A stretch of DNA of 64,000 bases from Sphingomicrobium sp. (GCA_035944075.1 DASZBO010000017.1:13090-77089), one strand, 5' to 3'; counted from the first letter of the stretch, positions 5,867 through 60,261 are shown. The notes: a model not told the origin generated them from the sequence alone. Numbers and translations: made by a program.

Positions 5867-5882
5867 TTAATGTAAACTTAAC
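5867..5882 (+). promoter_or_regulatory. CtrA-type box TTAA-N7-TTAAC
   Basis: TTAA TGTAAAC TTAAC, perfect consensus, about 86 bp upstream of the PEP-CTERM start at 5781. Confidence 0.7.
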
Positions 5883-6338
5883 AAATCCGCAATGCAGTCT
5901 TCGTGCCGACGAAGAAGAAGTGGGCGGAGTCTGCGACTTTGGGCGCGCAGAAATACACACGTGCGACAGGCGGCCTTCAGCAAGGGCGACCATTTTAGTA
6001 ATAATGTGTGCCAAGTAGAGACAGTTCGGATTTCCGTCGTGCTGCCTTGAGTTAGCTCGTTTCGTCGGTGGAATGCTCGATCGCCGGCGAATTCTTCTTA
6101 AGGACTAATTTTACATTGATCAGTATCGAGCCATCGGCCGACAACACGGCCCAGTTGTTCATTTCGATTGCAACGATTTTTTACGATCCATCGTCCTTGA
6201 ATGACGAAATGCAACAATCGAGGAGAAAGTCTTCATCGAGACGTCGACTTGGATGCAAATTTATCAATTTTTACGCGTCGTAAGCTAGCCCGAGTTCGCC
6301 AATTCGTGCTCGTTCGTCTTAGCGTCTTTTCTGTAACA

Positions 6339-6366
6339 GAAAACGGCCCCGGAAGACCGAGGCCGT
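6339..6366 (-). terminator. Intrinsic terminator of the PEP-CTERM gene 6391-7032
   Basis: Minus strand ACGGCCTCGG-TCTT-CCGGGGCCGT-TTT. Confidence 0.75.
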
Positions 6367-6390
6367 AATCCGATTTTTACGTGTACTCGG

Positions 6391-7032
6391 TTAGGCGACT
6401 TGCGAGATCGTAAGCCGGCGGCGCGTGCGCATCGCAAGACCGATCCCGGCAAAGCCGAGGAGCATCATGCCCCAAGTTGCCGGTTCGGGAACCCCCCTGA
6501 CCGGCGTGCCGTTGAGTGCAAATGTCAGGTCGGCAGGTGGGCCGCAGCACTCGCCATAAGACAGCTCAAAGCTGTACAGGCCGCTCGTAAGCACATTGAA
6601 AGTGGCAGTATTGGTAATATCGGAGGTCGCTGCCGGGCTATCAACAAGCAGGCCAAGGCCGTCGACGTTCAACTGTACTCCATCGTCATGCGAAACACTG
6701 AAGGTGTTCAGACCGGCGTTCAGAAAAACATCGCCGGTGAAAAGCATGTACGTATTAAGAACAGAGTCGCCTCCGACTGTAGCATTCGAAAATACCGGAT
6801 TATTCAGGAAAGCACCTATCGTGTAGGCAGATGGGGGCGAAGCGAAGTTGATCGGACCGACGAACGCCGTCCCGGTCGCTGTTCCAAGCCCACTCGCTGC
6901 AGCGATAGTGGCGTTATTAGCTGCAGCAGTAGCAGCTGGAGTGCCCGTCCAAATTGAGACGTTGACCCCGGCCTGAGCCGGTGCGGCAAGAGCGAGGACC
7001 GATACGGCGGCCGCGAGAATTCTCATGTACAT
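6391..7032 (-). CDS. PEPxxWA-CTERM surface protein with a PA14-like passenger
   Basis: GGAGG RBS before ATG 7032; signal peptide; FSVSHDDGVQLNVDG PA14-like segment; VPEPATWGMMLLGF-TM-RTRRR. Confidence 0.88.
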   Translation of the reverse strand: MYMRILAAAVSVLALAAPAQAGVNVSIWTGTPAATAAANNATIAAASGLGTATGTAFVGPINFASPPSAYTIGAFLNNPVFSNATVGGDSVLNTYMLFTGDVFLNAGLNTFSVSHDDGVQLNVDGLGLLVDSPAATSDITNTATFNVLTSGLYSFELSYGECCGPPADLTFALNGTPVRGVPEPATWGMMLLGFAGIGLAMRTRRRLTISQVA

Positions 7033-7161
7033 GTTGCCTCCCTTCGCGTGAAAAGTCACATCAAACCGACTGGTGCTTCGGGTTTTCCTCGAAGCATCGA
7101 ACGCGGGCGTATCTATGCGTAAGGCACGTGTGGCACGTTTACCCCCGCCACCCCGACTCGC

Positions 7162-7178
7162 GTTAATTCTTGATTAAC
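7162..7178. promoter_or_regulatory. CtrA-type box (perfect in both orientations)
   Basis: GTTAA TTCTTGA TTAAC, about 130 bp upstream of the PEP-CTERM start at 7032. Confidence 0.7.
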
Positions 7179-7403
7179 ACAATATTGTTTATAACGCGAA
7201 CGATGGGTAATCTTTCGTAGTGAAAGTCGCGGGCGACGGAGAAAAATCGGTCTCGGTGACCCGTGCGGGACACTCTGCTCGCTAACCGCTCTCCTTCCTC
7301 ATCGAAAACATCGCACGGCAAAGCGTTTGCGAAAGTTCCGGGCCGTAATTCGGAAGCGCAATTGGTGACCACCAGGTAGATGCTCGTCATTGTCGCCGAG
7401 CTT

Positions 7404-8868: not shown

Positions 8869-8885
8869 GTTAACAAATCGCTAAC
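8869..8885 (+). promoter_or_regulatory. CtrA-like box (one mismatch)
   Basis: GTTAA CAAATCG CTAAC, about 70 bp upstream of the PEP-CTERM start at 8955. Confidence 0.55.
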
Positions 8886-8954: not shown

Positions 8955-9584
8955 ATGCGTATGAAAATGAAATATTTAGCAGCCGCAGCAATCGCGGCCT
9001 CAGTAGCGGCGTCGCCAGCTGCAGCCGCATTCGTCACCTACAATACTACTGGCTCGACCCTGTCCTGCGGAGGTTTTGTAGGAACTTGCAGCGGTAGCGG
9101 CACGAATGTGTTGACCCTCGGCACCGGTTCTGGAGCCGCCTTTCTGAGCTTCGATCCTGTCGGCAATACGCTCGTAGACTCTCCAACGAACATCTCGCTG
9201 GGCGCAATCGACACCTCTAATCTGCTCGCGGGAAACTATAACCTCAGCGGAATTCTGCTCAACATCCTCGTTTCCCAAGTTTCGCCTGCAGGGAGCGGAA
9301 GTCTGCCGCTTGGCACGATCACGGGATCGCTTTCGGGTTTCAGCTCGACAGCGTCGATTGCCTTCGCAAGTGGAGGCGTGGTCATTGGCGGGAACGACTA
9401 TATGGTTACCAACAGCCCGCTCAACATCAATCCGCCGAGCTCGAATTTCGGAATCACGACCGTTCAAGGATTTGTGGCTCCGGTTCCAGAAGCCACCACC
9501 TGGGCAATGATGCTTGTTGGCTTCGGTGCGATGGGCTTCGCAATGCGTGGACGGCGACGGCAGATGCTTGCTCAGATAGCGTAA
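8955..9584 (+). CDS. PEPxxWA-CTERM surface protein
   Basis: Signal peptide ending ASPAAAA; Ser/Gly/Thr-rich passenger; VPEATTWAMMLVGFG-TM-RGRRR..AQIA; start could be 8961 or 8967. Confidence 0.9.
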   Translation: MRMKMKYLAAAAIAASVAASPAAAAFVTYNTTGSTLSCGGFVGTCSGSGTNVLTLGTGSGAAFLSFDPVGNTLVDSPTNISLGAIDTSNLLAGNYNLSGILLNILVSQVSPAGSGSLPLGTITGSLSGFSSTASIAFASGGVVIGGNDYMVTNSPLNINPPSSNFGITTVQGFVAPVPEATTWAMMLVGFGAMGFAMRGRRRQMLAQIA

Positions 9585-9610
9585 GCAACCATAGGTGCAG
9601 GAAAAGTTCG

Positions 9611-9640
9611 AGGCGGCCCCGGAATCGGGGCCGCCTTTTT
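9611..9640 (+). terminator. Intrinsic terminator
   Basis: AGGCGGCCCCG-GAAT-CGGGGCCGCCT-TTTT. Confidence 0.85.
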
Positions 9641-9857: not shown

Positions 9858-9873
9858 GTAAACAAATATTAAC
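9858..9873 (+). promoter_or_regulatory. CtrA-like box (one mismatch) upstream of the virB operon
   Basis: GTAA ACAAATA TTAAC. Confidence 0.45.
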
Positions 9874-9884
9874 TATCTCGCCCG

Positions 9885-10616
9885 ATGGTCCTCTCTGTGC
9901 ATAATAGCCGAGGTTACCCAGGGGGGTGGCGGAGATTGTTGGTTAATTCCTCACTGCTAATTGCAGTTTGTTTTCACTTATCGCGCAGCTGGCGCGTTGC
10001 CGTGGCCGCCGCAGGCGTTGCCGCAGGTCTGTTTGCGTCGCCGGCAGGAGCCCAGGTTATGGACATTGCTACGGACGGCACGGTCTCCGTGCGCCAGGGC
10101 GCCGGCGCTGCGAGTTGGGTTGTCACGAGCCCGGCGTCCGACCAGACTGTGGATGAAAATGGTTCGCCGGTCGTGATTCCCGATGGAGCGATCACAGACA
10201 TCAGCCCGGCTCCGGTGCCAGCACAATATGCCGCTGCTCTCACGAGGGCGGCAACGGCTGCAAACATCAGCCCTGCACTCCTTTCCGCGCTCGTTTGGCA
10301 GGAAAGTCGCTGGAACGCACAGGCCGTGTCCCGCAAGGGCGCGATTGGGCTTGCGCAGTTGATGCCGGCTACGGCGCGGTACCTCGGCGTCAATCCGATG
10401 GACCCTGTCGCCAACCTCAACGGAGGGGCGCGATATCTTCGCCAACTCCTTGATCAATTTGACGGAAATGTCGAAAAGGCGCTCGCCGCCTACAACGCGG
10501 GCGCGGCCCGCGTGCGCAATGCAGGCGGCGTTCCAGCAATCGCCGAGACAAGAAATTACGTGACGTCGATCGTGCGTCGCATCGCCTTGTCCGGCTCCAC
10601 GGGAGGATCTCAATGA
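9885..10616 (+). CDS. virB1: Lytic transglycosylase (SLT domain), VirB1-like
   Basis: LVWQESRW, AIGLAQLMPATA, ALAAYNAG, IAETRNYV; stop overlaps the virB2 start; true start probably somewhat downstream. Confidence 0.85.
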   Translation: MVLSVHNSRGYPGGWRRLLVNSSLLIAVCFHLSRSWRVAVAAAGVAAGLFASPAGAQVMDIATDGTVSVRQGAGAASWVVTSPASDQTVDENGSPVVIPDGAITDISPAPVPAQYAAALTRAATAANISPALLSALVWQESRWNAQAVSRKGAIGLAQLMPATARYLGVNPMDPVANLNGGARYLRQLLDQFDGNVEKALAAYNAGAARVRNAGGVPAIAETRNYVTSIVRRIALSGSTGGSQ

Positions 10617-10921
10617 TAGGCAAGCGGGCAATTGCCGCTTTTTCAATGGTCATGGCCAGCGCTCCGGCAGCCGCTGCGGGTGCTGTTAATCCGCAAGGCT
10701 CGGGGCCGGTCGTCAGCGCCCTCATGTGGCTTCAGGGGACGCTCCTTGGCAATGTCGCGACAGCGGTCGCGGTGATCGCCGTCGCAATGGTCGGTTTCAT
10801 GATGCTGACCGGGCGCATGAACTGGCGGTTCGGAGCGACCGTGATCATCGGCTGTTTCATCCTGTTCGGATCGGCTGCGATCGTCAGCGGCATCCAGGCC
10901 AGCGCGGCAGCGGCAGGCTAA
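10613..10921 (+). CDS. virB2: TrbC/VirB2 pilin
   Basis: Signal peptide plus two hydrophobic helices, GTLLGNVATAVAVIAVA..G..GR. Confidence 0.9.
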   Translation: MIGKRAIAAFSMVMASAPAAAAGAVNPQGSGPVVSALMWLQGTLLGNVATAVAVIAVAMVGFMMLTGRMNWRFGATVIIGCFILFGSAAIVSGIQASAAAAG

Positions 10922-10925
10922 GCGC

Positions 10926-11207
10926 ATGGCACTTTCAAGGTCGCCAGTGTTTCGCGCCCTGACCCGTCCGCAGATGTTCGCGGGCGTTACCTACAGCTAT
11001 TTCATCATCAACGCCGCGGTCACGACCGAAGCCTTTCTCATCACGCACAGCTTCATCGCGCTTCCCGTCGCGCTTGGAGTGCATGTGATCGGCTATTTTG
11101 CCTGTCTTCGTGAGCCCCGGATCTTCGACCTCTGGATCACCAAGGTCAGCCGCTGCCCCCGCGTGCGCAATTGGAAGCATTGGGGCTGCAACAGTTACGC
11201 GCCTTGA
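10926..11207 (+). CDS. virB3: VirB3
   Basis: PVFRALTRPQMFAGV, two TM segments, EPRIFDLW, NSYAP end. Confidence 0.92.
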   Translation: MALSRSPVFRALTRPQMFAGVTYSYFIINAAVTTEAFLITHSFIALPVALGVHVIGYFACLREPRIFDLWITKVSRCPRVRNWKHWGCNSYAP

Positions 11208-11209
11208 GC

Positions 11210-13627
11210 ATGAAAGCATCGTCTATGGTTAAGTGGTTCGGACCGGCAGCGTGGGGAAAGAAGGAAGCCAAGGCGGGCGACCGGCTTCCCTATGCCCGGC
11301 ACGTCGACAGCTCGACCCTGCGCCTTCGCGACGGGTCGCTGATGCGCTCGATGCGGCTTGCAGGCTTTCCCTTCGAAACCGAGGAAGACGACGTCCTCAA
11401 CCACATGCTCGCGGTTCGCGACGTGGTGCTGCGGAGCGCGCTCAATTCGAAGGCGGTTCTCTATCATCACCTCATTCGCCGCCTCGTAAAGGTGGACCTT
11501 GGCGCACAAACGCCGGATCCATTTTCCGCCGAGATCGATCGCCGCTGGACCGCGCAGATGAACGAGGGGCGGCTGTTCCTCAACGAGCAGTTCCTGACGA
11601 TCGTCGTCCGCCCGCCGCGCGGCAAGGCCGGCATCCCCGAACGCCTCAGCAAGCTTGGCGCCAAATCGTCGGGCGAATTGAGCGGTGCTGAAGTGCTCGA
11701 GCTCGATTCTGCGACCGCCGCGCTCTCGGCAGCGCTGCAATCCTATGGCGTTCGCGTCCTTGGTACCTACGAGAATGAGACCGGGGTCTATTCAGAACCG
11801 CTCGAGCTCCTTTCGGCACTCTACAATGGCGAGATGCGGCCCGTCCTTCTCCCGCGCTCTGACCAGGACCTTGGTCATCATATTCCTTATTCGCGGGTGA
11901 GCTTCGGCCTCGACGCGATCGAGGTGAGGGGGCCGGCAAGCCGGAGCTTCGCTAGCTTGCTCGGCATCAAGGAATATCCCGACGCAAGTCGCGCCGGGCT
12001 GCTCGACGCCGTCCTTCGCGTGCCCCACGAGCTTGTCATCTCCGAGAGCTTCGCGCCGATCGAACGTCAGACCGCCCGCGAGCGCATCGACCTCTCGCTC
12101 CGACGCCTCAAGAGCGCCGACGAGGGTGCTGCGACCGAGCGCGCCGAAATGCTTGCCGCCCGGGATGCCGTTGGCGCGGGCCAGATGAGCTTTGGCGATC
12201 ATCATCTCAGCCTTCTCGTTCGGAGTGGCTCGCTCGAAACACTTGAAAGCGCGACGGCTGATGCGGCTGCGGCACTCGCTGACATCGGCGCGGTAGCGGT
12301 TCGCGAGGACATCAACCTCGAACCCGCCTTCTGGGGGCAGTTCCCGGGGAACGAGCAATTTGTCGTTCGGCGCGCGCTCATTTCGAGCGCCAATGCGGCC
12401 GGGTTCATCTCGCTCCACGGATTCCCGATGGGTCGAGCGCGCGGCAATCACTGGGGTGAAGCGGTCAGCGTTTTCGAGACGACCAGCTCGACGCCTTATT
12501 TCTTCAACTTCCACGAAGGCGATCTGGGCAACTTCACGATCATCGGCCCTTCCGGTTCGGGCAAGACCGTCGTCCTTAATTTCCTCGCCGCTCAGGCGCA
12601 GAAATTTTCGCCCCGGACGATCCTGTTCGACAAGGATAGGGGCTCGGAGATCTTCCTCCGCGCGCTCGGCGGCCGCTATGAGCGGCTCGCGCGGGGAGCT
12701 GCGACCGGCTTCAACCCGCTGCGTTTGCCGGACAATGCCGGCAATCGCGCGTTCTTGCGCGACTGGCTTGCGAACCTCCTCGATGTCAGCGGGCCCGACG
12801 AAGAGTCGGTCGTCGCGAAAGCCATCGACGAGATCTTCGCCCATGGCCCCGAGCTTCGCCGCCTGCGCTTCCTTCGCGATCTCTTGGGCAGCGGTCGGCG
12901 CCCGCAGCCCGGCGATCTGCCTTCGCGTCTCGATCCGTGGATTCTCGAAGGTGAGCATGCGTGGTTGTTCGACAATCGCGACGACCAGCTTGATTTCTCC
13001 AATCGCGTTCTCGGCTTTGACATGACCGAGCTCCTGGAGGACCGGAAGCTCCGCACGCCGGTGCTGCTCTATCTGTTCCATCGGATCGAGCAGCGGCTCG
13101 ACGGATCGCCGACCATGATCCTCATCGACGAGGCCTGGAAAGCGCTCGATGATCCGATGTTCGCGCAACGCATCCGCAACTGGATGAAGACGCTTCGCAA
13201 ACGCAACGCGATGATCGGTTTTGCCACACAATCGGCAGCCGACGCGCTCGACAGCTCGATTTCCTCGGCGATTGTCGAACAGACCGCGACCGCGATCTTC
13301 ATGCCCAACAACAAGGCGCGCGAAGAGCATTATTGCAAGGGGTTCGGCCTCAGCGCGCAGGAGTTCGAGTTCATCCGGAGCTTGCCGGCGCACAGCCGCT
13401 GCTTCCTCGTCCGGCAATCGAACCGATCTGTCGTCGTTCGGCTCGACCTTGGCGGAATGCCCGACGTGTTGACCGTTCTCTCAGGCCGCGAATCCAACGT
13501 TCGCCGCCTCGACGAAATCCGGGCAGCGGTCGGCGACGATCCGTCCCTATGGTATCCGATGCTGACCCGTTCGCCTTGGCCGGGCGCGCCCGCTGGCGAT
13601 GACTACTGGCTGGAAGCGGCCGAATGA
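11210..13627 (+). CDS. virB4: VirB4 ATPase
   Basis: Walker A GPSGSGKT, FDKDRG, Walker B ILIDEAW, FATQS. Confidence 0.95.
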   Translation: MKASSMVKWFGPAAWGKKEAKAGDRLPYARHVDSSTLRLRDGSLMRSMRLAGFPFETEEDDVLNHMLAVRDVVLRSALNSKAVLYHHLIRRLVKVDLGAQTPDPFSAEIDRRWTAQMNEGRLFLNEQFLTIVVRPPRGKAGIPERLSKLGAKSSGELSGAEVLELDSATAALSAALQSYGVRVLGTYENETGVYSEPLELLSALYNGEMRPVLLPRSDQDLGHHIPYSRVSFGLDAIEVRGPASRSFASLLGIKEYPDASRAGLLDAVLRVPHELVISESFAPIERQTARERIDLSLRRLKSADEGAATERAEMLAARDAVGAGQMSFGDHHLSLLVRSGSLETLESATADAAAALADIGAVAVREDINLEPAFWGQFPGNEQFVVRRALISSANAAGFISLHGFPMGRARGNHWGEAVSVFETTSSTPYFFNFHEGDLGNFTIIGPSGSGKTVVLNFLAAQAQKFSPRTILFDKDRGSEIFLRALGGRYERLARGAATGFNPLRLPDNAGNRAFLRDWLANLLDVSGPDEESVVAKAIDEIFAHGPELRRLRFLRDLLGSGRRPQPGDLPSRLDPWILEGEHAWLFDNRDDQLDFSNRVLGFDMTELLEDRKLRTPVLLYLFHRIEQRLDGSPTMILIDEAWKALDDPMFAQRIRNWMKTLRKRNAMIGFATQSAADALDSSISSAIVEQTATAIFMPNNKAREEHYCKGFGLSAQEFEFIRSLPAHSRCFLVRQSNRSVVVRLDLGGMPDVLTVLSGRESNVRRLDEIRAAVGDDPSLWYPMLTRSPWPGAPAGDDYWLEAAE

Positions 13628-14823
13628 CGCAGTGCCAATCGTTTGGCGCGGAAGGGCCGCAGGGCATCGCCGATGCGCTGCAGAAGGTCGACTGCCTCGC
13701 GACCGACGCCACAAGCGTGTCGTTCGGCCGGTTGTTCGGCGCGCACGGCAATTTCCAGACCGCGCTAACGATTATCCTTACGCTCTACATCGCGCTTCTC
13801 GCCTTCAATCTCCTGACCGGGAGGTCGGCGCTTCGGATATCGGTTCTTACGCCGCGCATGATGACCTTGGGGCTGGTGTTGACGTTCGCCACCTCATGGG
13901 TCGCTTATCAGTCGGTCGTCTGGAACCTTGCGACCGGCGCTCCCGATGAAATCGCGAGCGTGCTCGTGGGAACCAAGGGCTCGGCAACCGTTGCTTTTGC
14001 CCAGCAGCTGGACGGTTTCTTCAACGCAATCACGGATGCGGCCTCGAGCGCCCAGCCCAATCCTCAGACCGTTGCGGCAAACCCTGCCGCGATCGCGGCT
14101 GCCTCGGGCGTCACGTCGTCGACCAACATTCTTTCGATCGGCGCGCTCATCATGCTTCTGGGCACCGTTGGCGTGCTGGTTGTCTGCCGTCTTGCGCTCG
14201 CTGCGCTCCTCATCATCGGGCCGGTCTTCATCGTTCTCGCGCTCTTCGAGGGGACGCGCGGCCTGTTCGAGGGATGGCTGAAAAGCGTTGTCCTGTTCGC
14301 GCTCGTTCCGCTTCTCACCGTCCTGATGGGCAGCGGAGCCCTCGTGGCCATTGCACCAATGGTGGCGGGGCTCGATCAGGCCGGAGCAGACGTACCCATG
14401 AGAACCGCAGTGTCGATCCTGGTTGCCTCGATCATCTACGCTTCCCTGATGCTGCTTGTGATCAAGGTCGCCGCGAACCTCACGCGAGGCTGGCGGATGG
14501 CAAAGACTCCTGGACTTGTTCCCTCGTTTGGCAATGGAGGGTTCTCACTCCATCAGGAACGCAGTCCCGTCACGGCTGCTGCACCCGCCACTTCCGGAGC
14601 GACGCTGGTTGCCTCGGACCGGGTCCGGAGCACGGTCGCAAGTCTTGAAACGATGTCCGCGTCGCACCGCCTTCCGCCACCCGCCACGACGCGGTTCGCC
14701 ATGCCCGCTCCCGTGCCGCAGCTCAGCCTCGCAGGCCCAAGCGATGCCCGCTCACAGCTTCGATATCTTCATCACCGGGTCGCCGGTGCTTCCACCCCTG
14801 TTTCGCGAGAGATGCTGCGATGA
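13624..14823 (+). CDS. virB6: VirB6/TrbL-family inner membrane protein
   Basis: Multiple TM segments, GPVFIVLALFEGTRGLFEGWL; ATGA overlap with virB4. Confidence 0.88.
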   Translation: MTQCQSFGAEGPQGIADALQKVDCLATDATSVSFGRLFGAHGNFQTALTIILTLYIALLAFNLLTGRSALRISVLTPRMMTLGLVLTFATSWVAYQSVVWNLATGAPDEIASVLVGTKGSATVAFAQQLDGFFNAITDAASSAQPNPQTVAANPAAIAAASGVTSSTNILSIGALIMLLGTVGVLVVCRLALAALLIIGPVFIVLALFEGTRGLFEGWLKSVVLFALVPLLTVLMGSGALVAIAPMVAGLDQAGADVPMRTAVSILVASIIYASLMLLVIKVAANLTRGWRMAKTPGLVPSFGNGGFSLHQERSPVTAAAPATSGATLVASDRVRSTVASLETMSASHRLPPPATTRFAMPAPVPQLSLAGPSDARSQLRYLHHRVAGASTPVSREMLR

Positions 14824-15755
14824 TTCGCAAGTTTAGTTTTGCTGCGTTGACCCTTTTTGCTTCGAGCGCTGCCTTTGCGGCAAGCGACGGCCGCATCCGT
14901 ACGCTCGCTTACAATCCGGACCAGATCGTTCGCATACTCGGCAAGCCCGGCATCCAGTCGACCATCGAATTCGCCCCAGACGAGCGGATTGAAAATGTCG
15001 CGGTCGGCGATTCATCCGCCTGGCAGATTACACCCAACCGGCGGGCAAGCCTCCTGTTCGTGAAACCGCTTGTGGCACGTAGCCGGACCAACATGACCGT
15101 CGTAACCGACCGTCGCACGTATATGTTCGACCTGCTGGCGGAGGGTAAATCGACAGCGGCCGTCTATGCGCTGAAGTTCAGTTATCCGCACGAAAAGCAG
15201 ATCGAAGAACCCGTCAAGGTCGCCCAGCCCGTTGTTGCCGCGGCGGCGGAGCAATCGTCGGTTGCGACCATGACCGCCGACAAGCTCCATTTCGATTGGA
15301 AGACCAAGGGGGCCGGCAAGCTTCTGCCGACCCGCGTCTTCGACGATGGCTCGTCGCTCTATCTGCTCTGGGGTAAGGACACGCCGCTGCCCGCGATCCT
15401 CACCGAGTCCGAGGACCGCAAGGAAGGGCCGGTCAACTATCGGATGAGCGGCGAATATATAGTCATCAACCCGATCCCGGCGAACCTCGTCCTTCGCTAT
15501 GGCAACAAATATGCGCTTCTCTGGCCATCGCGCCGGATCGACCCGCCGGCGCGCTCGACGCCAAATGCAATGGAGGGACGTCTCGCTGCCAATGTCACGC
15601 CGACGCAAAGCCCGGCGGAACAGCCATCTCCGATCCCGCCTGCTCGGCAAGCCGCCGTCGCGGCCCAACCAAAACCGGAACCGGGCGCAGTAAAGCTCGC
15701 AAACATGACCTCGCTCTACAGCGACAAACTGACGGACAATCGCCATGACCGTTAA
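14820..15755 (+). CDS. virB9: VirB9/TrbG-family core protein with a Pro-rich tail
   Basis: DGRIRTLAYNPDQIV, IENVAVGDS, TNMTVVTDRRTY, PTRVFDDG, VNYR. Confidence 0.92.
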   Translation: MIRKFSFAALTLFASSAAFAASDGRIRTLAYNPDQIVRILGKPGIQSTIEFAPDERIENVAVGDSSAWQITPNRRASLLFVKPLVARSRTNMTVVTDRRTYMFDLLAEGKSTAAVYALKFSYPHEKQIEEPVKVAQPVVAAAAEQSSVATMTADKLHFDWKTKGAGKLLPTRVFDDGSSLYLLWGKDTPLPAILTESEDRKEGPVNYRMSGEYIVINPIPANLVLRYGNKYALLWPSRRIDPPARSTPNAMEGRLAANVTPTQSPAEQPSPIPPARQAAVAAQPKPEPGAVKLANMTSLYSDKLTDNRHDR

Positions 15756-16920
15756 ACCCGTCGTCATCGACGCTCCCTCGAACACCGTTCGTGGTCCCTG
15801 GGAGGACCATGGCCGAACGACTCTTCCCGCCCCGGTTCCGCAGACGGATCCGCGTCTCGAGCTCAGCGAGCAGGCACTGGTCGTTGCGAGCACGAACGCC
15901 TTCCCGATCGTTGCACGCCAGAAGAGCCGCCGCGATAGTCTGGGTCTCGCCGCTGGAGGAGCCGTAGCGCTCGTCCTTGGCTGCGCGACCTTCCTTTCGC
16001 TAAGCTCGGGTCGTCACGCGCCCGCGGCCGCCGGGACTGGCGTCGCGGTCGCTCCCGAAGTCCGTCCCGGTCTGCCGATGGGGGCACCTGTTCCGGGTAA
16101 GCCCTTGGCGATGCCGCCGACGACGGTTCCTTCACAACCACAGCCCACGCCCATGGCGGGAATGGCTCACGCGCCGGCGACGTCGGCGATGCCCGGCATG
16201 GCGCCAACGTCCGCACCGGTGCTCGTTTACGACGGCAGTTCGACGCCAATGACGACCGTCACGGCAGGACCCAACACTCCGCGGACCGCCGAAGGCGCTC
16301 CCGCCCTCCTTGCTGGAGGAATGCCCGGTGGAAGCGCGATCGGCGACAATAATACGGCCCATGCGACGAAACTCGCTGAACCCGCGAGCACGGTCGTCCA
16401 GGGTACGCTCATTCCGGCGGTGCTCGAGACCGCTATCGATACGGACGTGCCAGGTTATGCCCGCGCGGTGGTCAGCCAGGACGTGCGGTCGTTTGACGGC
16501 AGTCGCGTCCTCATTCCGCGCTCGTCGCGCCTCATCGGTGAATATAAGGGCGTGACCCAGGCCGGCCAGCGCCGAGCGTTCCTCATGTGGACACGGCTCG
16601 TTCGGCCGGACGGCGTATCCATCGCACTGGGCTCGCCTGCTGCGGACTTCTCCGGGCAGGCTGGTATCGGGGGCCAGGTCAACAGCCACTTCATCTCCCG
16701 CTTTGGTTCTTCAATCCTGCTGTCGATCCTCGGCGGGGCTGGATCGCTGTTCACCGGCGGCAGCTCGACCGTTGTCGTTTCGGGCGGCCAGAGCGCTGCT
16801 TCCGTTGCTGCACAGCACGACGGCAATCGTCCGCCAACGATCAAAGTTCAGCAGGGACAGCCCATTCGCGTATTCACGGCACGCGACCTCATTTTCTCGG
16901 ATACCGGGGCGGACGGTTGA
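15745..16920 (+). CDS. virB10: VirB10/TrbI-family core protein
   Basis: TM plus Pro-rich linker, QGTLIPAVLETAIDTDVPG, LIPRSSRLIGEY, PTIKVQQG. Confidence 0.93.
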   Translation: MTVKPVVIDAPSNTVRGPWEDHGRTTLPAPVPQTDPRLELSEQALVVASTNAFPIVARQKSRRDSLGLAAGGAVALVLGCATFLSLSSGRHAPAAAGTGVAVAPEVRPGLPMGAPVPGKPLAMPPTTVPSQPQPTPMAGMAHAPATSAMPGMAPTSAPVLVYDGSSTPMTTVTAGPNTPRTAEGAPALLAGGMPGGSAIGDNNTAHATKLAEPASTVVQGTLIPAVLETAIDTDVPGYARAVVSQDVRSFDGSRVLIPRSSRLIGEYKGVTQAGQRRAFLMWTRLVRPDGVSIALGSPAADFSGQAGIGGQVNSHFISRFGSSILLSILGGAGSLFTGGSSTVVVSGGQSAASVAAQHDGNRPPTIKVQQGQPIRVFTARDLIFSDTGADG

Positions 16921-17939
16921 GCGAAGCCGAACCGATTCTGGTCACCGATGCGGTCGACCCGTTCCTCGAGGCATACCTCGAGCCCTTCCGCGCGTGGTTG
17001 TCCCAGCCGGACGTAACGGAGATCCTCGTCAACGCTCCCGGGGAAGCCTGGATCGAGCAGCGGGGGCGGATGACCTGTCACAAGGTCGAGAAGATCGACG
17101 ATGCGCTGCTGCAGCGCCTCGCCGAGCAGGTTGCGCGCGTCAGCAACCAGGGCATCAGCCGCGAGCGGCCGCTGCTTGCCGCGATGCTGCCAAACGGTGC
17201 ACGCGTCCAGTTCGTAGCTCCGACGGCGACGCGCGCGCACTGGGCGCTCGCGATCCGCCGACACTGCCTTCTAGACCTCCCGCTAGACGCCTACGCCACG
17301 GGGCCCCTTCAGCCCCAGCGCAAGACGGTCGCGATCGCGCCCGAAGAGGATCCGATCGGATTTCTTCGGCAGGCCGTCGCCGAGCGCAAGACCATCCTCA
17401 TCAGCGGCGGTACGTCGACCGGAAAGACAACGTTCCTGAACGCGCTGATGCGCGAAGTTCCCGCAGACGAACGGGTGATCGTCGTCGAGGACACCGCCGA
17501 AGTGCAGCTTCATGGTCCCAATGATCTCGGCCTTATCGCGGTGAAGGGCGAGCTCGGCGAAGCCCTCATCAACACGGACGACCTTCTTCAGGCCGCGCTT
17601 CGCCTGCGGCCGGACCGGATTCTCCTTGGCGAGCTTCGCGGCAAGGAGGCGGTGAGCTTCCTTCGAGCAGTGAATACCGGCCATCCCGGCTCGTTCAGCA
17701 CGATCCACGCGAATTCGACCAGCGGGGCTCTGGAGCAGCTCGCCCTCATGGTCATGCAATCGGGGCTTGGACTGACGCGCAGCGAAACCATTGATTACGC
17801 ACGTTCGGTTATCGACGTCGTGGTTCAGCTCGGCCGCGAAGGCGCGCAGCGAAAAATCGTGGCAATCGAGCAGCTGTCGCCGGCAAGTCCGGCGGCTGAG
17901 CTGTCGATCCGCCAGATCCTCAGTCGGGTAGCGGCATAA
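16917..17939 (+). CDS. virB11: VirB11 P-type DNA transfer ATPase
   Basis: Walker A GGTSTGKT, LRLRPDRILLGELRG, TGHPGSFSTIHAN; TTG start overlapping the virB10 TGA. Confidence 0.93.
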   Translation: MSEAEPILVTDAVDPFLEAYLEPFRAWLSQPDVTEILVNAPGEAWIEQRGRMTCHKVEKIDDALLQRLAEQVARVSNQGISRERPLLAAMLPNGARVQFVAPTATRAHWALAIRRHCLLDLPLDAYATGPLQPQRKTVAIAPEEDPIGFLRQAVAERKTILISGGTSTGKTTFLNALMREVPADERVIVVEDTAEVQLHGPNDLGLIAVKGELGEALINTDDLLQAALRLRPDRILLGELRGKEAVSFLRAVNTGHPGSFSTIHANSTSGALEQLALMVMQSGLGLTRSETIDYARSVIDVVVQLGREGAQRKIVAIEQLSPASPAAELSIRQILSRVAA

Positions 17940-25744: not shown

Positions 25745-25760
25745 GTTAAAAAATCGTTTA
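25745..25760 (-). promoter_or_regulatory. CtrA-like box (one mismatch)
   Basis: Minus strand TAAA CGATTTT TTAAC, about 120 bp upstream of the PEP-CTERM start at 25880. Confidence 0.5.
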
Positions 25761-25879: not shown

Positions 25880-26557
25880 ATGGAACGTCTTCTTAAGACG
25901 GCTGTAGCCGCTGCCGCGATGATCGCTATTGCATCACCCGCAGGTGCCGCGATTACTATGACGACCACGACTGGGATGCCGTTATCGTATCAGATTTTCG
26001 GAATTGCCAATGCTTCGGGCAATCCAGTTTATGGCTCGTCGCCCAACAACACCACTGTGCCGAACGTCACGTACACGGGCGACGCGAACATGACCATGGC
26101 AAACGGTTTTGCCCAGCTCAGTGATGCTAATTCAATGAATCCGAGTCTGTTCACGGTCGTGATCAATCCGGACTTGGACTTCAGCCAGATGAAGTTCGCG
26201 ATGCAGCTCGTCAGTGCTGGAACCGCCACCGTTTATTATCTTCTGTCGGGATCGGGTTTGGACGCAAATGCGTTCGCGAGCTATACAACCGCGTCTGCAT
26301 TTTCAGGCAGCTTTGCCCCGGTTTCTTCGGATTCCAAAGATAATAACAATTATCTGGTCAGTGGGGGCACATTCGACGGCATCATGATCCGCTCGACGGC
26401 TCCGATTGAACTCTTCGAAGTAAAACAGAATTCCTACGATCCTGCGCCGGGTGCGGTGCCGGAGCCCGCAACGTGGGTATTCATGCTTCTCGGGTTTGGG
26501 GGCATCGGGATGAATCTCCGCCGGCGCCGAAAAGGCGCGCTTGCGCAAATAGCGTAA
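25880..26557 (+). CDS. PEPxxWA-CTERM surface protein
   Basis: GAAGGA RBS, signal peptide ending ASPAGA, VPEPATWVFMLLGFG-TM-RRRRK..AQIA. Confidence 0.9.
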   Translation: MERLLKTAVAAAAMIAIASPAGAAITMTTTTGMPLSYQIFGIANASGNPVYGSSPNNTTVPNVTYTGDANMTMANGFAQLSDANSMNPSLFTVVINPDLDFSQMKFAMQLVSAGTATVYYLLSGSGLDANAFASYTTASAFSGSFAPVSSDSKDNNNYLVSGGTFDGIMIRSTAPIELFEVKQNSYDPAPGAVPEPATWVFMLLGFGGIGMNLRRRRKGALAQIA

Positions 26558-26581: not shown

Positions 26582-28363
26582 TCAACAGCTGGACTCGATT
26601 GAACCGGAGCGCATGTCCGTCGGTTTGAGTGGGCTCAATTGCCTTTGATCTCTTGAACCACCGCAATCAGTCGATTTTCCTTTCCGGCGCGGGCGTTGTC
26701 GTTCAGAATCCTCGCCGACGAGCAAGGTGCTCGGCTGTGCATCGATGATGAGTGGCGTCGCCGGTTTCGGCGCAGCAGGAGTTGCGTTCCGGTCCTCACC
26801 AGCTTTGGATTGATCGCCCATGAGCTTGTCAGCGAGCTGCTGCCCCTCAGGCGTCTCAGGAATGATGATTGCCGTACCCGGTTCGCGAAAAGGCGGCTCA
26901 GTTCCCGCATAGTGTTGCGAGAAAGCCCGCGCCTCGCCGAATACATTGCGCAATCGATAGAAAATGTGTCGCCCGATCTGCACGCTCTTGTCGAGCGAAT
27001 CTGCCCAATAGGGAAGCACATAGTCGGCATGATAATGGGTCGCGTGACCCACGGGTCCAAAAACCTCGCCCTTCAAAGCTTCTCCCGCGATCTTTTTCGA
27101 GCGGGCCCATAGAGAGGAGACGGGAACACGTTGCATTGACCCGTCGCAGGTGAAGCTGAACTGGCAACCCGTCGGCCGGTCCGCTCCTTCGTAGACAACA
27201 CCGCAGATCGTCGATGGAAAGCCGGGATGTCGGACGCGGTTCAGCACGACCTGCGCTACCGCGCGACCGCCGTCTACGCCTTCGCCTGCGGCTTCATAAT
27301 AAACTGCCTGCGATAGGCAGGTGAGGGCGCGCGCCTGATTATCCGCATCGGTATGGAGGATAAATTTGCGAGCGGGTGTGTCGGGGCGCGTTACAAATGG
27401 CCGCTCGGTATTCTCCTTCGCAGCCTGGTCGGGCGAGAGCGGTTTCAGCAGCCCGGGGGCAGGGAGCGACTGAACTGCAGCGGCACTTTGCGACTGTACG
27501 GGGGGTAGCCAGAGATCGAGCGAAGTCCCGCTTGGTCGTCCGGCCTCAAACGACATGCCCACGTACAGCGCGATTGCGCCGAAGAGCGCGCCGAGAAGCG
27601 AAAGTGGAACGATGCTTCCTGCGTGCGCCTTACCGCGACGCCAGCGCAGCCATAAGGGGAAAATGCGAAGACCGTCTATCATGTAGCGTCGCCACAGCCG
27701 GCGAGGGTTTGAGAGCAATCGATGAGCCCACTCGAGGCCGAGGTTCTGAATGACTTTCGGAGCGCGCTTTTGCTTTCCGGTGATGAAGTCGAGACCGGCG
27801 CCGATGCAAAGTCCCATTCCTGTGGCGGTCGGAAACTCGCGGACTTCTCGCGCGATCATCTCCTGTTGCGGCGATCCGACGGCGATGAAGGCAAAGCGCG
27901 CCTGCGAGCTCGCGATAAATGCTGCGGCTTCGCTTCGCGCACGGGCGTCCGCACGCAGGTTCATGGGCGGCTCGAAGTGCAGGAACTGGGTCTCTGGGAA
28001 TTTCGCTCTCAGTTGCTCCAAACACGCCCGGTCGGCGCCGACGACCGCGATTCGATCCCTGGGTTTTATGATGTCGGTGAAGAGCGTCGCAGAGAGGTCG
28101 CTCCCAGCTACGAGAGGAAGTCTAACGCCCTTCAGGCGCGCGAGGAATTTAAGAACGCGGCTGTCACAAACGCACAAATCCGCACGTTCGTATAGCTCGC
28201 GGAGCTCAGGCTCTCGGTGAACGCGAACAACATGATCGACGTTCGGCGTCACGATATATTCGTAACGCGACGAGACTTTCACAGCTTGCAACCGGTGCTT
28301 GATTTCTGGGAAACTGAGCAGGTCGAAGTGCAGATCGAGGAAATTTACTCGATCAATATGCAT
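26582..28363 (-). CDS. Fusion: WecB/TagA/CpsF glycosyltransferase + TM helix + SleB-type cell-wall hydrolase (Hydrolase_2)
   Basis: N-terminal IVTPNVDH, VAGSDL, VGSPQQE, GLEWAHRLL..PRRLWRRY; C-terminal CLSQAVYYEA..E, VVLNRV, CQFSF, ATHYHADYV, IGRHIFY; single open frame; ATG 28363 overlaps the upstream stop. Confidence 0.85.
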   Translation of the reverse strand: MHIDRVNFLDLHFDLLSFPEIKHRLQAVKVSSRYEYIVTPNVDHVVRVHREPELRELYERADLCVCDSRVLKFLARLKGVRLPLVAGSDLSATLFTDIIKPRDRIAVVGADRACLEQLRAKFPETQFLHFEPPMNLRADARARSEAAAFIASSQARFAFIAVGSPQQEMIAREVREFPTATGMGLCIGAGLDFITGKQKRAPKVIQNLGLEWAHRLLSNPRRLWRRYMIDGLRIFPLWLRWRRGKAHAGSIVPLSLLGALFGAIALYVGMSFEAGRPSGTSLDLWLPPVQSQSAAAVQSLPAPGLLKPLSPDQAAKENTERPFVTRPDTPARKFILHTDADNQARALTCLSQAVYYEAAGEGVDGGRAVAQVVLNRVRHPGFPSTICGVVYEGADRPTGCQFSFTCDGSMQRVPVSSLWARSKKIAGEALKGEVFGPVGHATHYHADYVLPYWADSLDKSVQIGRHIFYRLRNVFGEARAFSQHYAGTEPPFREPGTAIIIPETPEGQQLADKLMGDQSKAGEDRNATPAAPKPATPLIIDAQPSTLLVGEDSERQRPRRKGKSTDCGGSRDQRQLSPLKPTDMRSGSIESSC

Positions 28364-36732: not shown

Positions 36733-37425
36733 TCAGCCGGTGAATACCGGTCGCCGGCTCGGTGGGACCGAGTTCAGCATAGCTGATACGAACTGATCGA
36801 TCGTCTGAAGTGCAGTGTCGCCATCATTGCTGACTGTGGAAATGCGCACGAGGATCGCGTCCGGAATAACGCCTTTGAGATTCTGCTCCGCGACGGCCAG
36901 TTTTTGGTCCCGCCAAGTGGGTGGGATTTGGTCACCAACCCGCGTCCAATAAACGACATGCTCAACTGGTCCGCCGTTCGTGGCGTCCATCCGGTTTGCC
37001 GGAACAATCGTTCCGTTTACCGGAATTGGGTGCGGAGTGATCGGCGAGATCTCGTAACCTCCCGCCGTATAGCAGATTTCGGGGCGGTGGATTTGCAGAA
37101 ATCCGGTTTGGCTTCCGTTTTGTGCGACCAGCAGCATTATTGGTGGATTTTTTCCATCGACGTATATGCGCGTGAGAACTTGCGCGTAGATAAGTTTCTC
37201 AAATGGATCATCCGGTGGGACAACGAGGCCGCTCGCCGTTTCATATTTCCACTTGCCAATAGTTTTCGGGATCAGGACCTCGAGCTTGTCGGCTCCGAGA
37301 TAGTCGAGCTTGACCCGTGGACGTCGTAGATAGGCGAATGCTGCCGCGGAGCCGAACAGCAACCCCGTAAGGAATTTCCTGCGATCGGCCTCCGGCTGCG
37401 TAAAGCTGCCCAACACCGGCTTCAT
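36733..37425 (-). CDS. epsI: Exosortase-associated EpsI-family protein
   Basis: RRKFLTG N-terminus, IPKTIGKW, QIHRPEICYTAGGY, YWTRVG, LVRIST. Confidence 0.85.
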   Translation of the reverse strand: MKPVLGSFTQPEADRRKFLTGLLFGSAAAFAYLRRPRVKLDYLGADKLEVLIPKTIGKWKYETASGLVVPPDDPFEKLIYAQVLTRIYVDGKNPPIMLLVAQNGSQTGFLQIHRPEICYTAGGYEISPITPHPIPVNGTIVPANRMDATNGGPVEHVVYWTRVGDQIPPTWRDQKLAVAEQNLKGVIPDAILVRISTVSNDGDTALQTIDQFVSAMLNSVPPSRRPVFTG

Positions 37426-38318
37426 GCGTGCCGACGCTTCGTGATCTTGTCCACGACCGGGAATGTAATCTGGTCAATGGCGAATACCACGACGAGCGCC
37501 ACGGAGAACATGAGAAGTCCCGCAAAATCATGCACAAAGCCCTGAGCCACCGAGTCCCCGAAATAATAAGTAATGAGAACCAGAGCCAGGACGCGGACGA
37601 AGTTCGCAATGATCGCGATCGGGATGGCGGCGATCGCAATTACGAGAAAGGCGATCACGTCAGAGCGGTGCCTCAAATAAACGTAAAAGAGGCAGAGCGC
37701 CGTCAAGGTCACAATCGAATTGAGGCCAGCGCACGCTGCCGCTACCAGCAGTTGGTATTGACCGATTTGGATCGTTACGCCCGAACTTGCGACCGGGTAG
37801 CCCAACAGCTGTAAAGTTGAAACGGCCCAAGTGGAAATGGCAATCTTGATCGGCTGCGTAACGAAGGTGACGACGGTGTCCGGAGGCGGCAAGGCGAAGG
37901 CAAGATACACCAGTGGGAACCAGATGGCGCGCATGACGGATCCGCCAAAGATGAGGTATGCTCCGCTAATGAGTGAACCATACATGGCGAAGTCTTCAAC
38001 TTCGAGGACGCCGGTAATTCTCGCAACGATGAATCCTGCGAGCGCCAATGCAATACACGGAATCCCGATCGCCACCCGGCCTGTCCGGCGTTCGATAGCG
38101 TTCCCCTTAAGCTCGCGCCAGATTGCCCAAAGTCCCGTCGCGAGCACGAGAGGTCCGTGTCCGCCCTGCTCGGTCGTCCAGGTTTCTGTGGCGACATCGT
38201 ACATAGTTGGGACGGCCAAAAGTAGGCATCCGACTCCCAGCACAATGTCTGCCCCATTGACGAGGGGGCGCTGTGATGGCGGAACCTGCACAAGTGAACT
38301 TGGACTTTCGAAATTCAC
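37422..38318 (-). CDS. xrtV: Exosortase (XrtV-like)
   Basis: Multi-TM; GHGPLV; catalytic Cys (VAAACAGLNS), Arg (ANFVRV) and His (VHDFAG). Confidence 0.88.
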   Translation of the reverse strand: MNFESPSSLVQVPPSQRPLVNGADIVLGVGCLLLAVPTMYDVATETWTTEQGGHGPLVLATGLWAIWRELKGNAIERRTGRVAIGIPCIALALAGFIVARITGVLEVEDFAMYGSLISGAYLIFGGSVMRAIWFPLVYLAFALPPPDTVVTFVTQPIKIAISTWAVSTLQLLGYPVASSGVTIQIGQYQLLVAAACAGLNSIVTLTALCLFYVYLRHRSDVIAFLVIAIAAIPIAIIANFVRVLALVLITYYFGDSVAQGFVHDFAGLLMFSVALVVVFAIDQITFPVVDKITKRRHA

Positions 38319-47457: not shown

Positions 47458-47465
47458 ACTTAGTG

Positions 47466-57737: not shown

Positions 57738-58142
57738 TTAGAAGGGGCAACTAAGCTTCTTAGTTTTCGAAGCGAGCGCCTGTGCCGGCTTACCATCGAC
57801 AAAGAGCCCAACTGTTTCCGCCGTTTGATCCCAGTTAAAGATGACATCGTGCTCAGGTTTTGCAGCGAAGCTGGCAATCAGTGTCTTGCGTTCTTGACCA
57901 CCCTGGATGAGAGCAAACGACAAACTGTGATGAGACGGCCAGTATATCACCGTCCCGCCATGGGGCACCATGAAGCACTGGCGGTTCTCTCGCCCATCTG
58001 GAAGTCGCTCGCTTACATGCCACTCAAACTGGCCCGCGAGCGCGGTTAAGTGGCGGATGAGCGCATCCCGTTGACTAACATCCGCGGGGCTGCGGCAACT
58101 CGTCAATACAATCGAGGAAGCTATTAAGGCGAGTTTTTTCAT
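57738..58142 (-). CDS. Hypothetical lipoprotein
   Basis: MKKLALIASSIVLTSC lipobox; the longer 274-aa ORF start is not credible. Confidence 0.65.
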   Translation of the reverse strand: MKKLALIASSIVLTSCRSPADVSQRDALIRHLTALAGQFEWHVSERLPDGRENRQCFMVPHGGTVIYWPSHHSLSFALIQGGQERKTLIASFAAKPEHDVIFNWDQTAETVGLFVDGKPAQALASKTKKLSCPF

Positions 58143-58418
58143 CCGCATTCTCCGTTTTAGGCGTTCTTTAAGAAGCCTGGTCACGAATCCGTTCGTAGGG
58201 CAGCAAGGCGAGCTTTCGTTGGCATGAGCGCGTAAGCGGTCGCTAATGACACCCTGCTGAGGAGTCACACTATTTACTTGTGTAGTGCTCAGTCGTTCCT
58301 CGGAGATTGAAGACGGCGCTTGCGCGTCATGGAGATAAGATGGAGGATCATACCCAGGATGAAGGCTTCTTTTTGTCCCCTGCTTCCTCGAGCCCGTGCG
58401 CCATGATACGCGCGACTG

Positions 58419-58532
58419 ATGGAATTCCTCATCGGACTCGCTTGGTGGCTCTATATCTTCATCGGCTTGATGATGCTCGCGATCGCAAGCGACCGCGAGC
58501 CGCCGAAACGCAGGAACAAGCCGAGAAGTTAG
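58419..58532 (+). CDS. Candidate 37-aa single-TM small protein
   Basis: MEFLIGLAWWLYIFIGLMMLAIASDREPPKRRNKPRS; below the ORF-track cutoff; no clear RBS. Confidence 0.35.
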   Translation: MEFLIGLAWWLYIFIGLMMLAIASDREPPKRRNKPRS

Positions 58533-58543
58533 CGAGTGTCGCC

Positions 58544-59290
58544 TCAAATCCCCGCGTACCACTCGTAATCGGCATTATCTTCCCAGTAGCCGCCGTTGCC
58601 ACCGAACGCGCTATGTAGGCTCTCGACCGCTTCGATCCGCTGAATATACTTCGCCTGCTTGTAACCGAGCTGCCTTTCGACCCTGAGACGCAGCGGCGCT
58701 CCATTCGGAACCGGCAGCAGATGACCATTCATGCCCCAGGCGAGGATTGTCTGCGGGTGAAAGGCATCGATGAGATCAATGCTCTCATAATAGGGTTTGT
58801 CGCCGATACGGTCCGCGCAATGAAACACGATGTATCGTGCCCGCGTGCTGAGGCCTGCATGATCAAGAATGCGTGAAAGCGGCACGCCGTGCCACTTGCC
58901 GATCGCGCTCCAGCCTTCGACGCAATCGTGCCGCGTTATCTGCGTGCGGTGTGGCAGCGTTCTCAGCGTCTGCATCGATATCGAAAGCGGCCGGGCGACC
59001 AGTCCGTCCACGGCCAACCGCCAGTTCGTAAATTGCTCTTCAACGTGCCGGGCATAGTCATCGCCGCCAGGCATGGCCGTACCGTTTGAGCGAAATATCG
59101 GCGAAAGGTCGGCTTCGTTATACTCGCGCGCGAGTGCATCGCGGGAGGAGATCAGTCGCTGACTGGCCATGGTCAGCTTCTCGGCGGACCGCAGCACGCT
59201 TCGAAATTGGCCGTTGTTGGTGAGGCGGTCACAGCCGCCAAGCAAAAGGCTGGACGAGCCCGTTACGATCAAATGGCGGCGCGTAATCAT
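58544..59290 (-). CDS. Molybdopterin-dependent oxidoreductase (sulfite oxidase/MsrP-like), Tat signal
   Basis: ITRRHLI, WRLAVDGLV, HDCVEGWS, NGAPLRLRV, YKQAKYI, GGYWED. Confidence 0.92.
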   Translation of the reverse strand: MITRRHLIVTGSSSLLLGGCDRLTNNGQFRSVLRSAEKLTMASQRLISSRDALAREYNEADLSPIFRSNGTAMPGGDDYARHVEEQFTNWRLAVDGLVARPLSISMQTLRTLPHRTQITRHDCVEGWSAIGKWHGVPLSRILDHAGLSTRARYIVFHCADRIGDKPYYESIDLIDAFHPQTILAWGMNGHLLPVPNGAPLRLRVERQLGYKQAKYIQRIEAVESLHSAFGGNGGYWEDNADYEWYAGI

Positions 59291-60057
59291 CGTCCGGCGG
59301 TCTCCGGTGGGACCCGAAAGCGTCCCGTGACCATCGATCGGATTTCGTTGAGCGGGCCGGCCAGCAAAACCATCACGAGGTGGACGATGATGAATGCGAG
59401 GAGCGCCATCGCGCAGATAAAGTGGATTGAACGTGCGGACTGCCGCCCGGCAAACATCTCAAGGAGCCACGGCCACGCAGCATCCATCGCCGGCGACATC
59501 GTGAGACCGGTGAGGAGCATCAGCGGCAAAAACAGGAAAATGACGCTGACGTAGCTGAGCTTCTGAAGGATGTTGTATCGTAGCGCCGCTTCGCCCGTGG
59601 GAAAGCGAAGGCGCGCGTGCTGGCGAATATCCTCCCAGATGTGGCGGGGCCTTAGTTCCTCAGCCGTCGGCCGGAGGTCGCGTTGCGCGTGCCGGTTAAG
59701 AAGGCTGAGCACGATAAACAGAATGAGCCCGATCGACAGTAGCCAGGCGAAGGCCAAATGCCATCGGCGCGCCGCGGCAAGATTGTAGGTCGAGGGAATC
59801 GTTGCCCAACCGGGGATTGGGCGCCCGCGGAACGAGAGCCACGAATGATCGAAGTTTGCACCAAATTTGCCCCAGTAGAGGTGCGGATGAGCGTTGAAGA
59901 TCATGAGACCGGACATCAGCATGATGAACACGGTCAGCGCATTCACCCAGTGCCACAGTCGCGTCGGGAGGCGGTGACGATAGGCGGTAATAGCCGTTGG
60001 TCTCGGCGGAAGAGGACTGGCCTCGAAGCTTTCGGTGTTCGCCGCAGCATCGTCCAT
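59287..60057 (-). CDS. Cytochrome b/b6-domain membrane partner of the Mo enzyme
   Basis: TRLWHWVNA, ARRWHLAF, YNILQKLSY, ARSIHF, HLVMV. Confidence 0.9.
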   Translation of the reverse strand: MDDAAANTESFEASPLPPRPTAITAYRHRLPTRLWHWVNALTVFIMLMSGLMIFNAHPHLYWGKFGANFDHSWLSFRGRPIPGWATIPSTYNLAAARRWHLAFAWLLSIGLILFIVLSLLNRHAQRDLRPTAEELRPRHIWEDIRQHARLRFPTGEAALRYNILQKLSYVSVIFLFLPLMLLTGLTMSPAMDAAWPWLLEMFAGRQSARSIHFICAMALLAFIIVHLVMVLLAGPLNEIRSMVTGRFRVPPETAGR

Positions 60058-60244
60058 CAGGCGTTTGCAATAGCTCAGATGGAGCGGCTCGTCAGCACCG
60101 TGCGGAACTGGGATAGACAAGAGGTCCGCCCGGTTCAGACTTCGGCCGGCTACCTCTTGAACGCGGGACGGGTAGGCGGGCGCCCGTCCGCGCGACAGGC
60201 ATCATCTGTCCCTCATCGAGACACTGACGCGCCACAATAATCAT

Positions 60245-60261
60245 GTTAACCATACGTTAAC
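60245..60261. promoter_or_regulatory. CtrA-type box (perfect in both orientations)
   Basis: GTTAA CCATACG TTAAC, 40 bp upstream of the PEP-CTERM start at 60301. Confidence 0.72.

Follow-up and report, generated by a model that had tools for sequence, protein, structure and literature searches.

The window analysed here, a stretch of 64,000 nucleotides from Sphingomicrobium sp. (GCA_035944075.1 DASZBO010000017.1:13090-77089), encodes exosortase V (XrtV), which lies together with a V-type EpsI within a large exopolysaccharide (EPS) locus, and five proteins with a PEPxxWA-CTERM sorting signal. The locus raises the question of what determines when the cargo of such an exosortase is produced. XrtV/PEPxxWA systems are common among the Sphingomonadales and can comprise as many as 62 cargo genes in a single genome; no relevant paper on XrtV or PEPxxWA was found in the literature searched. 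An earlier note on this DNA, made from the sequence alone, had claimed that all five cargo genes carry an upstream TTAA-N7-TTAAC box of the CtrA type and form a candidate cell-cycle-controlled regulon of surface proteins. A shared CtrA-type box is the first regulatory lead on XrtV cargo and offers a first concrete, easily tested hypothesis for the timing of its production.

CtrA-type boxes upstream of the cargo genes

All five open reading frames (ORFs) passed the NCBIfam PEPxxWA-CTERM model with 37.5-50.5 bits (cut-off 35), as the earlier note had it, and signal-peptide-like N-termini were visible in their translations. A local hidden Markov model (HMM) of the sorting signal found no sixth PEP-CTERM gene in the window. 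Each of the five genes had a box 40-130 bp upstream. The motif scan recovered the perfect boxes listed beforehand at 5867, 7162 and 60245 as well as the one-mismatch copies at 8869 and 25745, and the measured distances to the gene starts (Table 1) agreed with the range that had been given. The copy at 61187, which is intergenic, was confirmed as the only other perfect one in the window, and a one-mismatch box at 9858 was added to the list. In total, six perfect strand matches were present against 0.12 expected, close to the earlier estimate of about 0.1; 100 dinucleotide shuffles never gave as many. The window boxes were confined to the cargo genes, a virB operon (9858) and the orphan site 61187; the scan detected no box with at most one mismatch at the xrtV promoter or at the xrtV/EPS operons.

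The complete assembly (3.19 Mb, 60.4% GC, 99.5% complete) was scanned in the same way. It contains 20 PEP-CTERM genes according to the local HMM, and a box with at most one mismatch was found within 250 bp upstream of 13 of them, six of these boxes being perfect. There are 11 distinct perfect sites genome-wide, with four inside the window, and six of the 11 lie directly 5' of PEP-CTERM genes (three in the window, the others at C45:9405, C49:70779 and C73:671). When one mismatch was allowed, 64 of the 73 sites in the genome were intergenic.

The upstream regions of the PEP-CTERM genes are relatively AT-rich (mean GC 0.54, genome 0.60) and some of the genes are paralogous (C49, C73), so that boxes might reflect the composition of AT-rich spacers or might have been copied with duplicated promoter cassettes. 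However, dinucleotide shuffles of the 20 upstream regions gave a mean of 0.66 regions with a box and a maximum of 4 in 500 shuffles. The earlier note had named a lack of enrichment over AT-matched intergenic DNA as a result that would count against it; the site density was 3.0/kb upstream of PEP-CTERM genes and 0.07-0.19/kb in GC-matched intergenic DNA, and the claim stood. Sites were thus 16- to 40-fold fewer in the shuffled and in the GC-matched sequences. With rough gene calls, a Fisher test on 11/16 PEP-CTERM and 70/2788 other upstream regions gave p = 2e-14. A motif-blind comparison of 6-mers with all intergenic DNA ranked GTTAAC first (20-fold, p = 2e-13); the next-best 6-mers were overlapping pieces of the box, and no second motif was found. 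Even among paralogous PEP-CTERM genes, the box flanks were unrelated, which argues that the boxes are not copies of one promoter cassette. Together with the persistence of the association across species (see below), these results make an origin by chance or copying practically negligible: the shuffles, the GC-matched intergenic DNA, the 6-mer test and the enrichment at 68 XrtV loci refute chance and AT-richness, and the unrelated flanks rule out cassette duplication.

A further perfect palindromic box was seen at C36:52516, 120 bp from the end of the contig.

Conservation in related genomes

Of 41 congeners sampled, 10 had XrtV, as did 21 of the 61 genomes that represented the family (one per genus). 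In six XrtV-positive congeners, the 350 bp upstream of PEP-CTERM genes were searched for boxes with no more than one mismatch; 19 of 32 gene rows had one, three of these boxes being perfect. The link in congeners was seen mostly at one mismatch, and among 30 sampled loci with perfect boxes (from 48 strand matches in congeners) none adjoined a PEP-CTERM gene. For the orthologues of gene 25880, the block ATTGCgAATCGTTAAAAAnnCGTTTATT was the best-conserved upstream stretch in three species, with the 'mismatched' second half-site included. A related-locus search with the protein of this gene gave no match.

A wider sample, with 68 XrtV loci (1.13 Mb in total), drew on many Sphingomonadales. Of 73 sites found here when one mismatch was allowed, 12 fell within the 1.15% of the DNA that lies upstream of PEP-CTERM genes, which corresponds to 0.92 as compared to 0.054 sites/kb (17-fold, binomial p = 5e-11). 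The box position -88 was shared by four of the loci (L158, L167, L168 and L171). Boxes at -155/-137 were found in two metagenome-assembled genomes (MAGs) labelled as Erythrobacter (L156) and Altererythrobacter (L177), and similar one-mismatch boxes at -149/-163 in another Erythrobacter-labelled MAG (L133). In Sphingomonas sp. DBB INV C78 (L127), a box with one mismatch precedes the PEP-CTERM gene that adjoins xrtV. The closest labelled relatives of XrtV itself were from Sphingomonas and Sphingomicrobium MAGs, with 65-74% identity. Conservation in relatives, which the earlier note had proposed as a check, was seen both in the congeners and in the wider sample. The association of CtrA-type boxes with exosortase-V cargo is real, statistically robust and evolutionarily conserved; it is strongest in this genus, yet extends beyond it.

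The likely binder and the direction of control

The core of the motif and its 11-bp register are identical to those of the CtrA full site, and the identification of the motif as the CtrA consensus was thereby upheld. Two proteins of the genome passed the CtrA equivalog model NF045991 (cut-off 350), one encoded at C79:68805-69518 (418 bits) and one at C48:5823-6518 on the minus strand (384 bits). They are 82% identical and have the same recognition helix, DVFICKLRKKL. ChpT (PF10090, 113.5 bits) and GcrA (138 bits) are also present. There are several CckA-like hybrid kinases, and the one that was scanned scored under the CckA equivalog cut-off. In the genome search flagellin and FliF genes were absent, although CheA and methyl-accepting chemotaxis protein (MCP) genes were found.

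The motif was also present at genes other than those for exosortase cargo. The promoter of the first ctrA gene contains …ATGGTTAATGGA…, i.e. TTAACCAT, with the same block at the second ctrA, and eight congeners share a conserved ctrA promoter block that includes the TTAA elements. Additionally, the motif precedes the Flp pilin gene (PF04964), genes for an MCP, a GGDEF-EAL-PilZ protein, a DUF2807 adhesin-like protein, a DegP-like protease and BrkB, two DUF4402 genes and one outer-membrane barrel gene. Hallmarks of CtrA regulons include an autoregulated ctrA gene and the control of pilA, chemotaxis and cyclic di-GMP (c-di-GMP) genes (PMC6180460; PMC8921679). Congeners with and without XrtV had perfect boxes at two kinds of gene, those for DUF2807 proteins and a helicase-like one (L029, L030, L032, L036); both seem to belong to a conserved core of targets in the genus. 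The position frequencies of PEP and non-PEP sites were indistinguishable, and a separate 'PEP flavour' of the motif that would imply another factor was rejected on this basis. CtrA is the likely binder, and one factor for all sites would be the simplest reading.

Some further sites were noted among these genes. The ctrA promoter has an N6-spaced variant of the box, TTAAGGGTGCTTAAC, at C79:68760-68785. At C81:18411-21217, a one-mismatch box separates chpT from the gene for a 780-aa CheA-like kinase that directly follows it. The boxes of DUF2807 ('adhesin head GIN domain') genes are located ~22-25 nt 5' of the likely start in five congeners (L028, L037, L040, L042, L045), where they are perfect (TTAAG-N6-TTAACC or close variants), and in the present genome (C25:55334), where there is one mismatch.

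Direct control of the exosortase-V cargo genes by CtrA is in our judgement probably the best explanation of the boxes. Every PEPxxWA-CTERM gene appears to be its own transcription unit, two of them with terminators of their own, with a TTAA-N7-TTAAC site 40-190 bp 5' of the start. A CckA-type kinase would phosphorylate CtrA by way of ChpT, and a dimer of phosphorylated CtrA (CtrA~P) would bind the cargo boxes as full sites and directly control, most likely activate, the transcription of the XrtV cargo. The cargo would then be co-regulated with the Flp pilin, the DUF2807 and DUF4402 surface proteins, chemotaxis-like signalling and c-di-GMP enzymes, and XrtV substrates would be the largest class of the predicted CtrA regulon in a lineage that has no flagellum. 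The binding of CtrA, its effect on expression and the direction of this effect are steps that we infer from sequence. The second CtrA appears unnecessary for the link, because congeners with one CtrA still have the boxes: among the six XrtV-positive congeners whose cargo genes bear boxes, five had a single CtrA, and none was found in the sixth, G106, which is 77% complete. A clean second copy was seen only in this genome among the 41 sampled, with split matches in two fragmented assemblies, and a role of this genome-specific paralogue as a dedicated regulator is unlikely to be required. The second ctrA gene lies ~1.7 kb from a gene for a CckA-like hybrid kinase (C48:8256-10499, plus strand), beside FixJ-type regulators, in DNA with lower GC at third codon positions (GC3).

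Several observations weigh against control of the cargo by CtrA. At seven of the 20 PEP-CTERM genes of this genome the N7-spaced box was absent; besides the 13 with such a box, one gene has an N6-spaced variant, GTTAACAATCGTTAAC (upstream of C114:59856). Ten XrtV-bearing genomes of other genera have 5-62 PEPxxWA-CTERM genes each, and in the six of these that were scanned perfect boxes were rare, with 0-5 strand matches each. A one-mismatch box was found at just 8 of 34 sampled cargo genes in other genera. The rarity of the boxes there points to a lineage-restricted link.

The symmetry of the motif is another such observation. GTTAA-N7-TTAAC is a perfect inverted repeat and GTTAAC is palindromic, so these sites might be recognised by symmetric dimers from other families, for example of the LuxR or Crp/FixK type, as encoded at 62006-62413 and 62580-63248; the likeness to the CtrA consensus would then be coincidental. 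The weak association in other XrtV-bearing genera, and a perfect site (C60:5062) between two divergent genes for LuxR-like proteins of ~370 aa each, would fit such a factor. However, the match to the CtrA full site is exact in core and register, the box at 60246 contains the TTAACCAT 8-mer, and the motif occurs also at ctrA, flp and the gene for the CheA-like kinase, and at conserved targets in XrtV-negative congeners. The equal position frequencies of PEP and non-PEP sites speak against a different reader as well. The FixK/FNR box is TTGAT-N4-ATCAA, and such boxes do not match the motif. We therefore consider another factor very unlikely.

The third set of observations concerns the position of the boxes. 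For five of the 13 boxes, only 23-39 nt separate the box end and the ATG, and a GGAGG-type Shine-Dalgarno sequence lies in this interval (genes at 60301 in the window, C45:9445, C49:70743, C49:71534 and C73:638). This spacing would place the box close to, over or just upstream of the core promoter, with the transcription start within ~20 nt of the box. In Caulobacter, activation is associated with CtrA sites near -35 and repression with sites that overlap -10 (Zhou 2015, as cited in PMC6180460), and a box over the core promoter is accordingly the layout that goes with repression. CtrA might thus act as a repressor, with the cargo switched off at high CtrA~P, which is the opposite of co-expression with the pilus. 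We regard this as unlikely, since other boxes are 85-190 nt upstream, the DUF2807 genes of the congeners have the same close spacing, and very short leaders would put the box back at -35. Also, good -35/-10 elements were not predicted, which is typical of activated promoters. No consensus sigma-70 promoter was predicted at the PEP-CTERM genes, and this fits activator-dependent promoters. Likewise no recurrent sigma-54 promoter (GG-N10-GC) was found in the 20 PEP-CTERM upstream regions, in agreement with the earlier note, and sigma-54 control of the cargo was rejected. The spacing is compatible with either sign of the predicted CtrA control, and activation would be the more likely one.

It can be asked how far control by CtrA would reach. 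In the broadest form, CtrA would have been repurposed in a flagellum-less lineage as master regulator of the exosortase-sorted surface proteome (XrtV cargo, Flp pili and DUF2807/DUF4402 proteins), whose expression would be coupled to the cell cycle or to one of the daughter cell types, and the extra module of CtrA2 and the CckA-like kinase would be a second sensory input to the same boxes. We hold this form to be rather improbable. The earlier note had likewise suggested a cell-cycle-controlled, cell-type-specific surface layer. From its reading of a CtrA regulon, the nonrandom, cargo-specific boxes and CtrA as their likely binder were retained; nothing beyond the presence of CtrA and GcrA points to cell-cycle control or to a cell-type-specific layer, and that part remains speculation. 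For Sphingomonas, a passage in PMC8921679 (citing Francez-Charlot 2015) names motility, EPS and c-di-GMP signalling as what CtrA regulates, and a cell-cycle role does not appear in that passage.

Comparison with known systems and further features of the window

Regarded as a cis-element, the box is an ordinary CtrA full site, and the new part is the target class, exosortase cargo. The core, the 11-bp register and the TTAACCAT variant are those of the alphaproteobacterial site in Caulobacter, Sinorhizobium, Rhodobacter and Sphingomonas melonis. As in known CtrA regulons, the sites are intergenic and the motif is found at ctrA, pilin, chemotaxis and c-di-GMP genes. N6-spaced variants such as those at the C114 gene and the ctrA promoter are described for R. 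sphaeroides (PMC6180460). The predicted regulon is also rich in envelope genes, in line with Brilli 2010 (cited in PMC8921679). Unlike in the usual CtrA regulons, the motility core is missing here, as flagellin and FliF genes are, and the best sites are at exosortase substrates; the genome also has a second CtrA beside a CckA-like kinase. CtrA retained after the loss of the flagellar regulon, with predicted targets that are mainly surface and adhesion proteins, would be informative about the rewiring of the CtrA network beyond the model species.

Within the same order, the CcsA/CckA-ChpT-CtrA pathway of Sphingomonas melonis and WelA of Sphingomonas sp. WG are described as controlling motility, EPS and biofilm formation (PMC8921679). 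The CtrA phosphorelay is thus linked to surface polysaccharide and biofilm traits there too. However, the strains studied there were flagellated and the genes were those of EPS or c-di-GMP; CtrA sites directly at exosortase cargo were not reported, and the EPS and xrtV operons of the present genome have no box with at most one mismatch. No link between CtrA and exosortase cargo was found in the literature searched, and the two papers in it that name both CtrA and PEP-CTERM were on unrelated subjects as judged by their titles and abstracts.

A different comparison is offered by the XrtA/PEP-CTERM systems, which reportedly operate with PrsK-PrsR and sigma-54 (the EpsH family, Haft 2006; TIGR02915/TIGR02916). 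The two have in common an exosortase and EpsI in an EPS locus, many dispersed cargo genes and a common upstream element. In contrast to the XrtA systems, the enzyme here is XrtV, the signal is PEPxxWA, the shared element is a CtrA-type box and there are no sigma-54 promoters at the cargo genes. PrsK and PrsR were not found among the genes of the window; no genome-wide search for them was made.

Table 1. Predicted cargo genes, exosortase genes and CtrA-type boxes in the window (positions counted from its first nucleotide).
Feature	Position	Strand	Remarks
PEPxxWA-CTERM protein, 221 aa, cistern family (95.6 bits, cut-off 60)	5116..5781	-	
Perfect CtrA-type box TTAATGTAAACTTAAC	5867..5882	+	85 nt 5' of PEP-CTERM gene 5116-5781 (-)
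PEPxxWA-CTERM protein	6391..7059	-	likely start is the ATG at 7032; own terminator 6343-6366
Perfect palindromic box GTTAATTCTTGATTAAC	7162..7178 (7162/7163)	both	~130 nt 5' of PEP-CTERM gene 6391-7032 (-)
One-mismatch box GTTAACAAATCGCTAAC	8869..8885 (8869/8870)	.	70 nt 5' of gene 8955-9584
PEPxxWA-CTERM protein, 209 aa	8955..9584	+	terminator 9610-9637
One-mismatch box GTAAACAAATATTAAC	9858..9873	+	precedes virB1-like lytic transglycosylase gene and virB3/4/9/10/11 operon
One-mismatch box (GTTAAAAAATCGTTTAT on + strand)	25745..25760	-	120 nt 5' of gene 25880-26557
PEPxxWA-CTERM protein, 225 aa	25880..26557	+	linked to XrtV/EPS locus
EpsI, V-type, 258.6 bits (cut-off 228)	36733..37425	-	
Exosortase V (XrtV), 352.5 bits (cut-off 313)	37422..38318	-	presumed sorting enzyme for the box-bearing genes
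Perfect palindromic box GTTAACCATACGTTAAC	60245..60261 (60245/60246)	both	40 nt 5' of gene 60301-60963; includes TTAACCAT 8-mer
PEPxxWA-CTERM protein, 220 aa	60301..60963	+	
Perfect box, intergenic	61187..61202	-	without downstream PEP-CTERM gene

About 55 nt on from the orphan box at 61187 there is a GC-rich hairpin with a T-run (61259-61275, plus strand), followed by a membrane hydrolase-like gene at 61380-61955. The interval 61187-61281 may hold a short CtrA-dependent RNA or the leader of this gene; Rfam gave no match in the window, the 61187 site included. The one-mismatch box at 9858-9873 fronts a type IV secretion operon (virB1/3/4/9/10/11, 9885-17939), which is located between PEP-CTERM genes and the EPS locus. 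The ORF at 26582-28555 on the minus strand combines a WecB/TagA/CpsF glycosyltransferase domain and a SleB-like cell-wall hydrolase domain in one protein. Finally, the ORF that leaves the window at 63233-64000 (plus strand), 3' of the gene for the FixK-like regulator, gave a weak match to the FapF amyloid transporter (52.7 bits, far under the cut-off).

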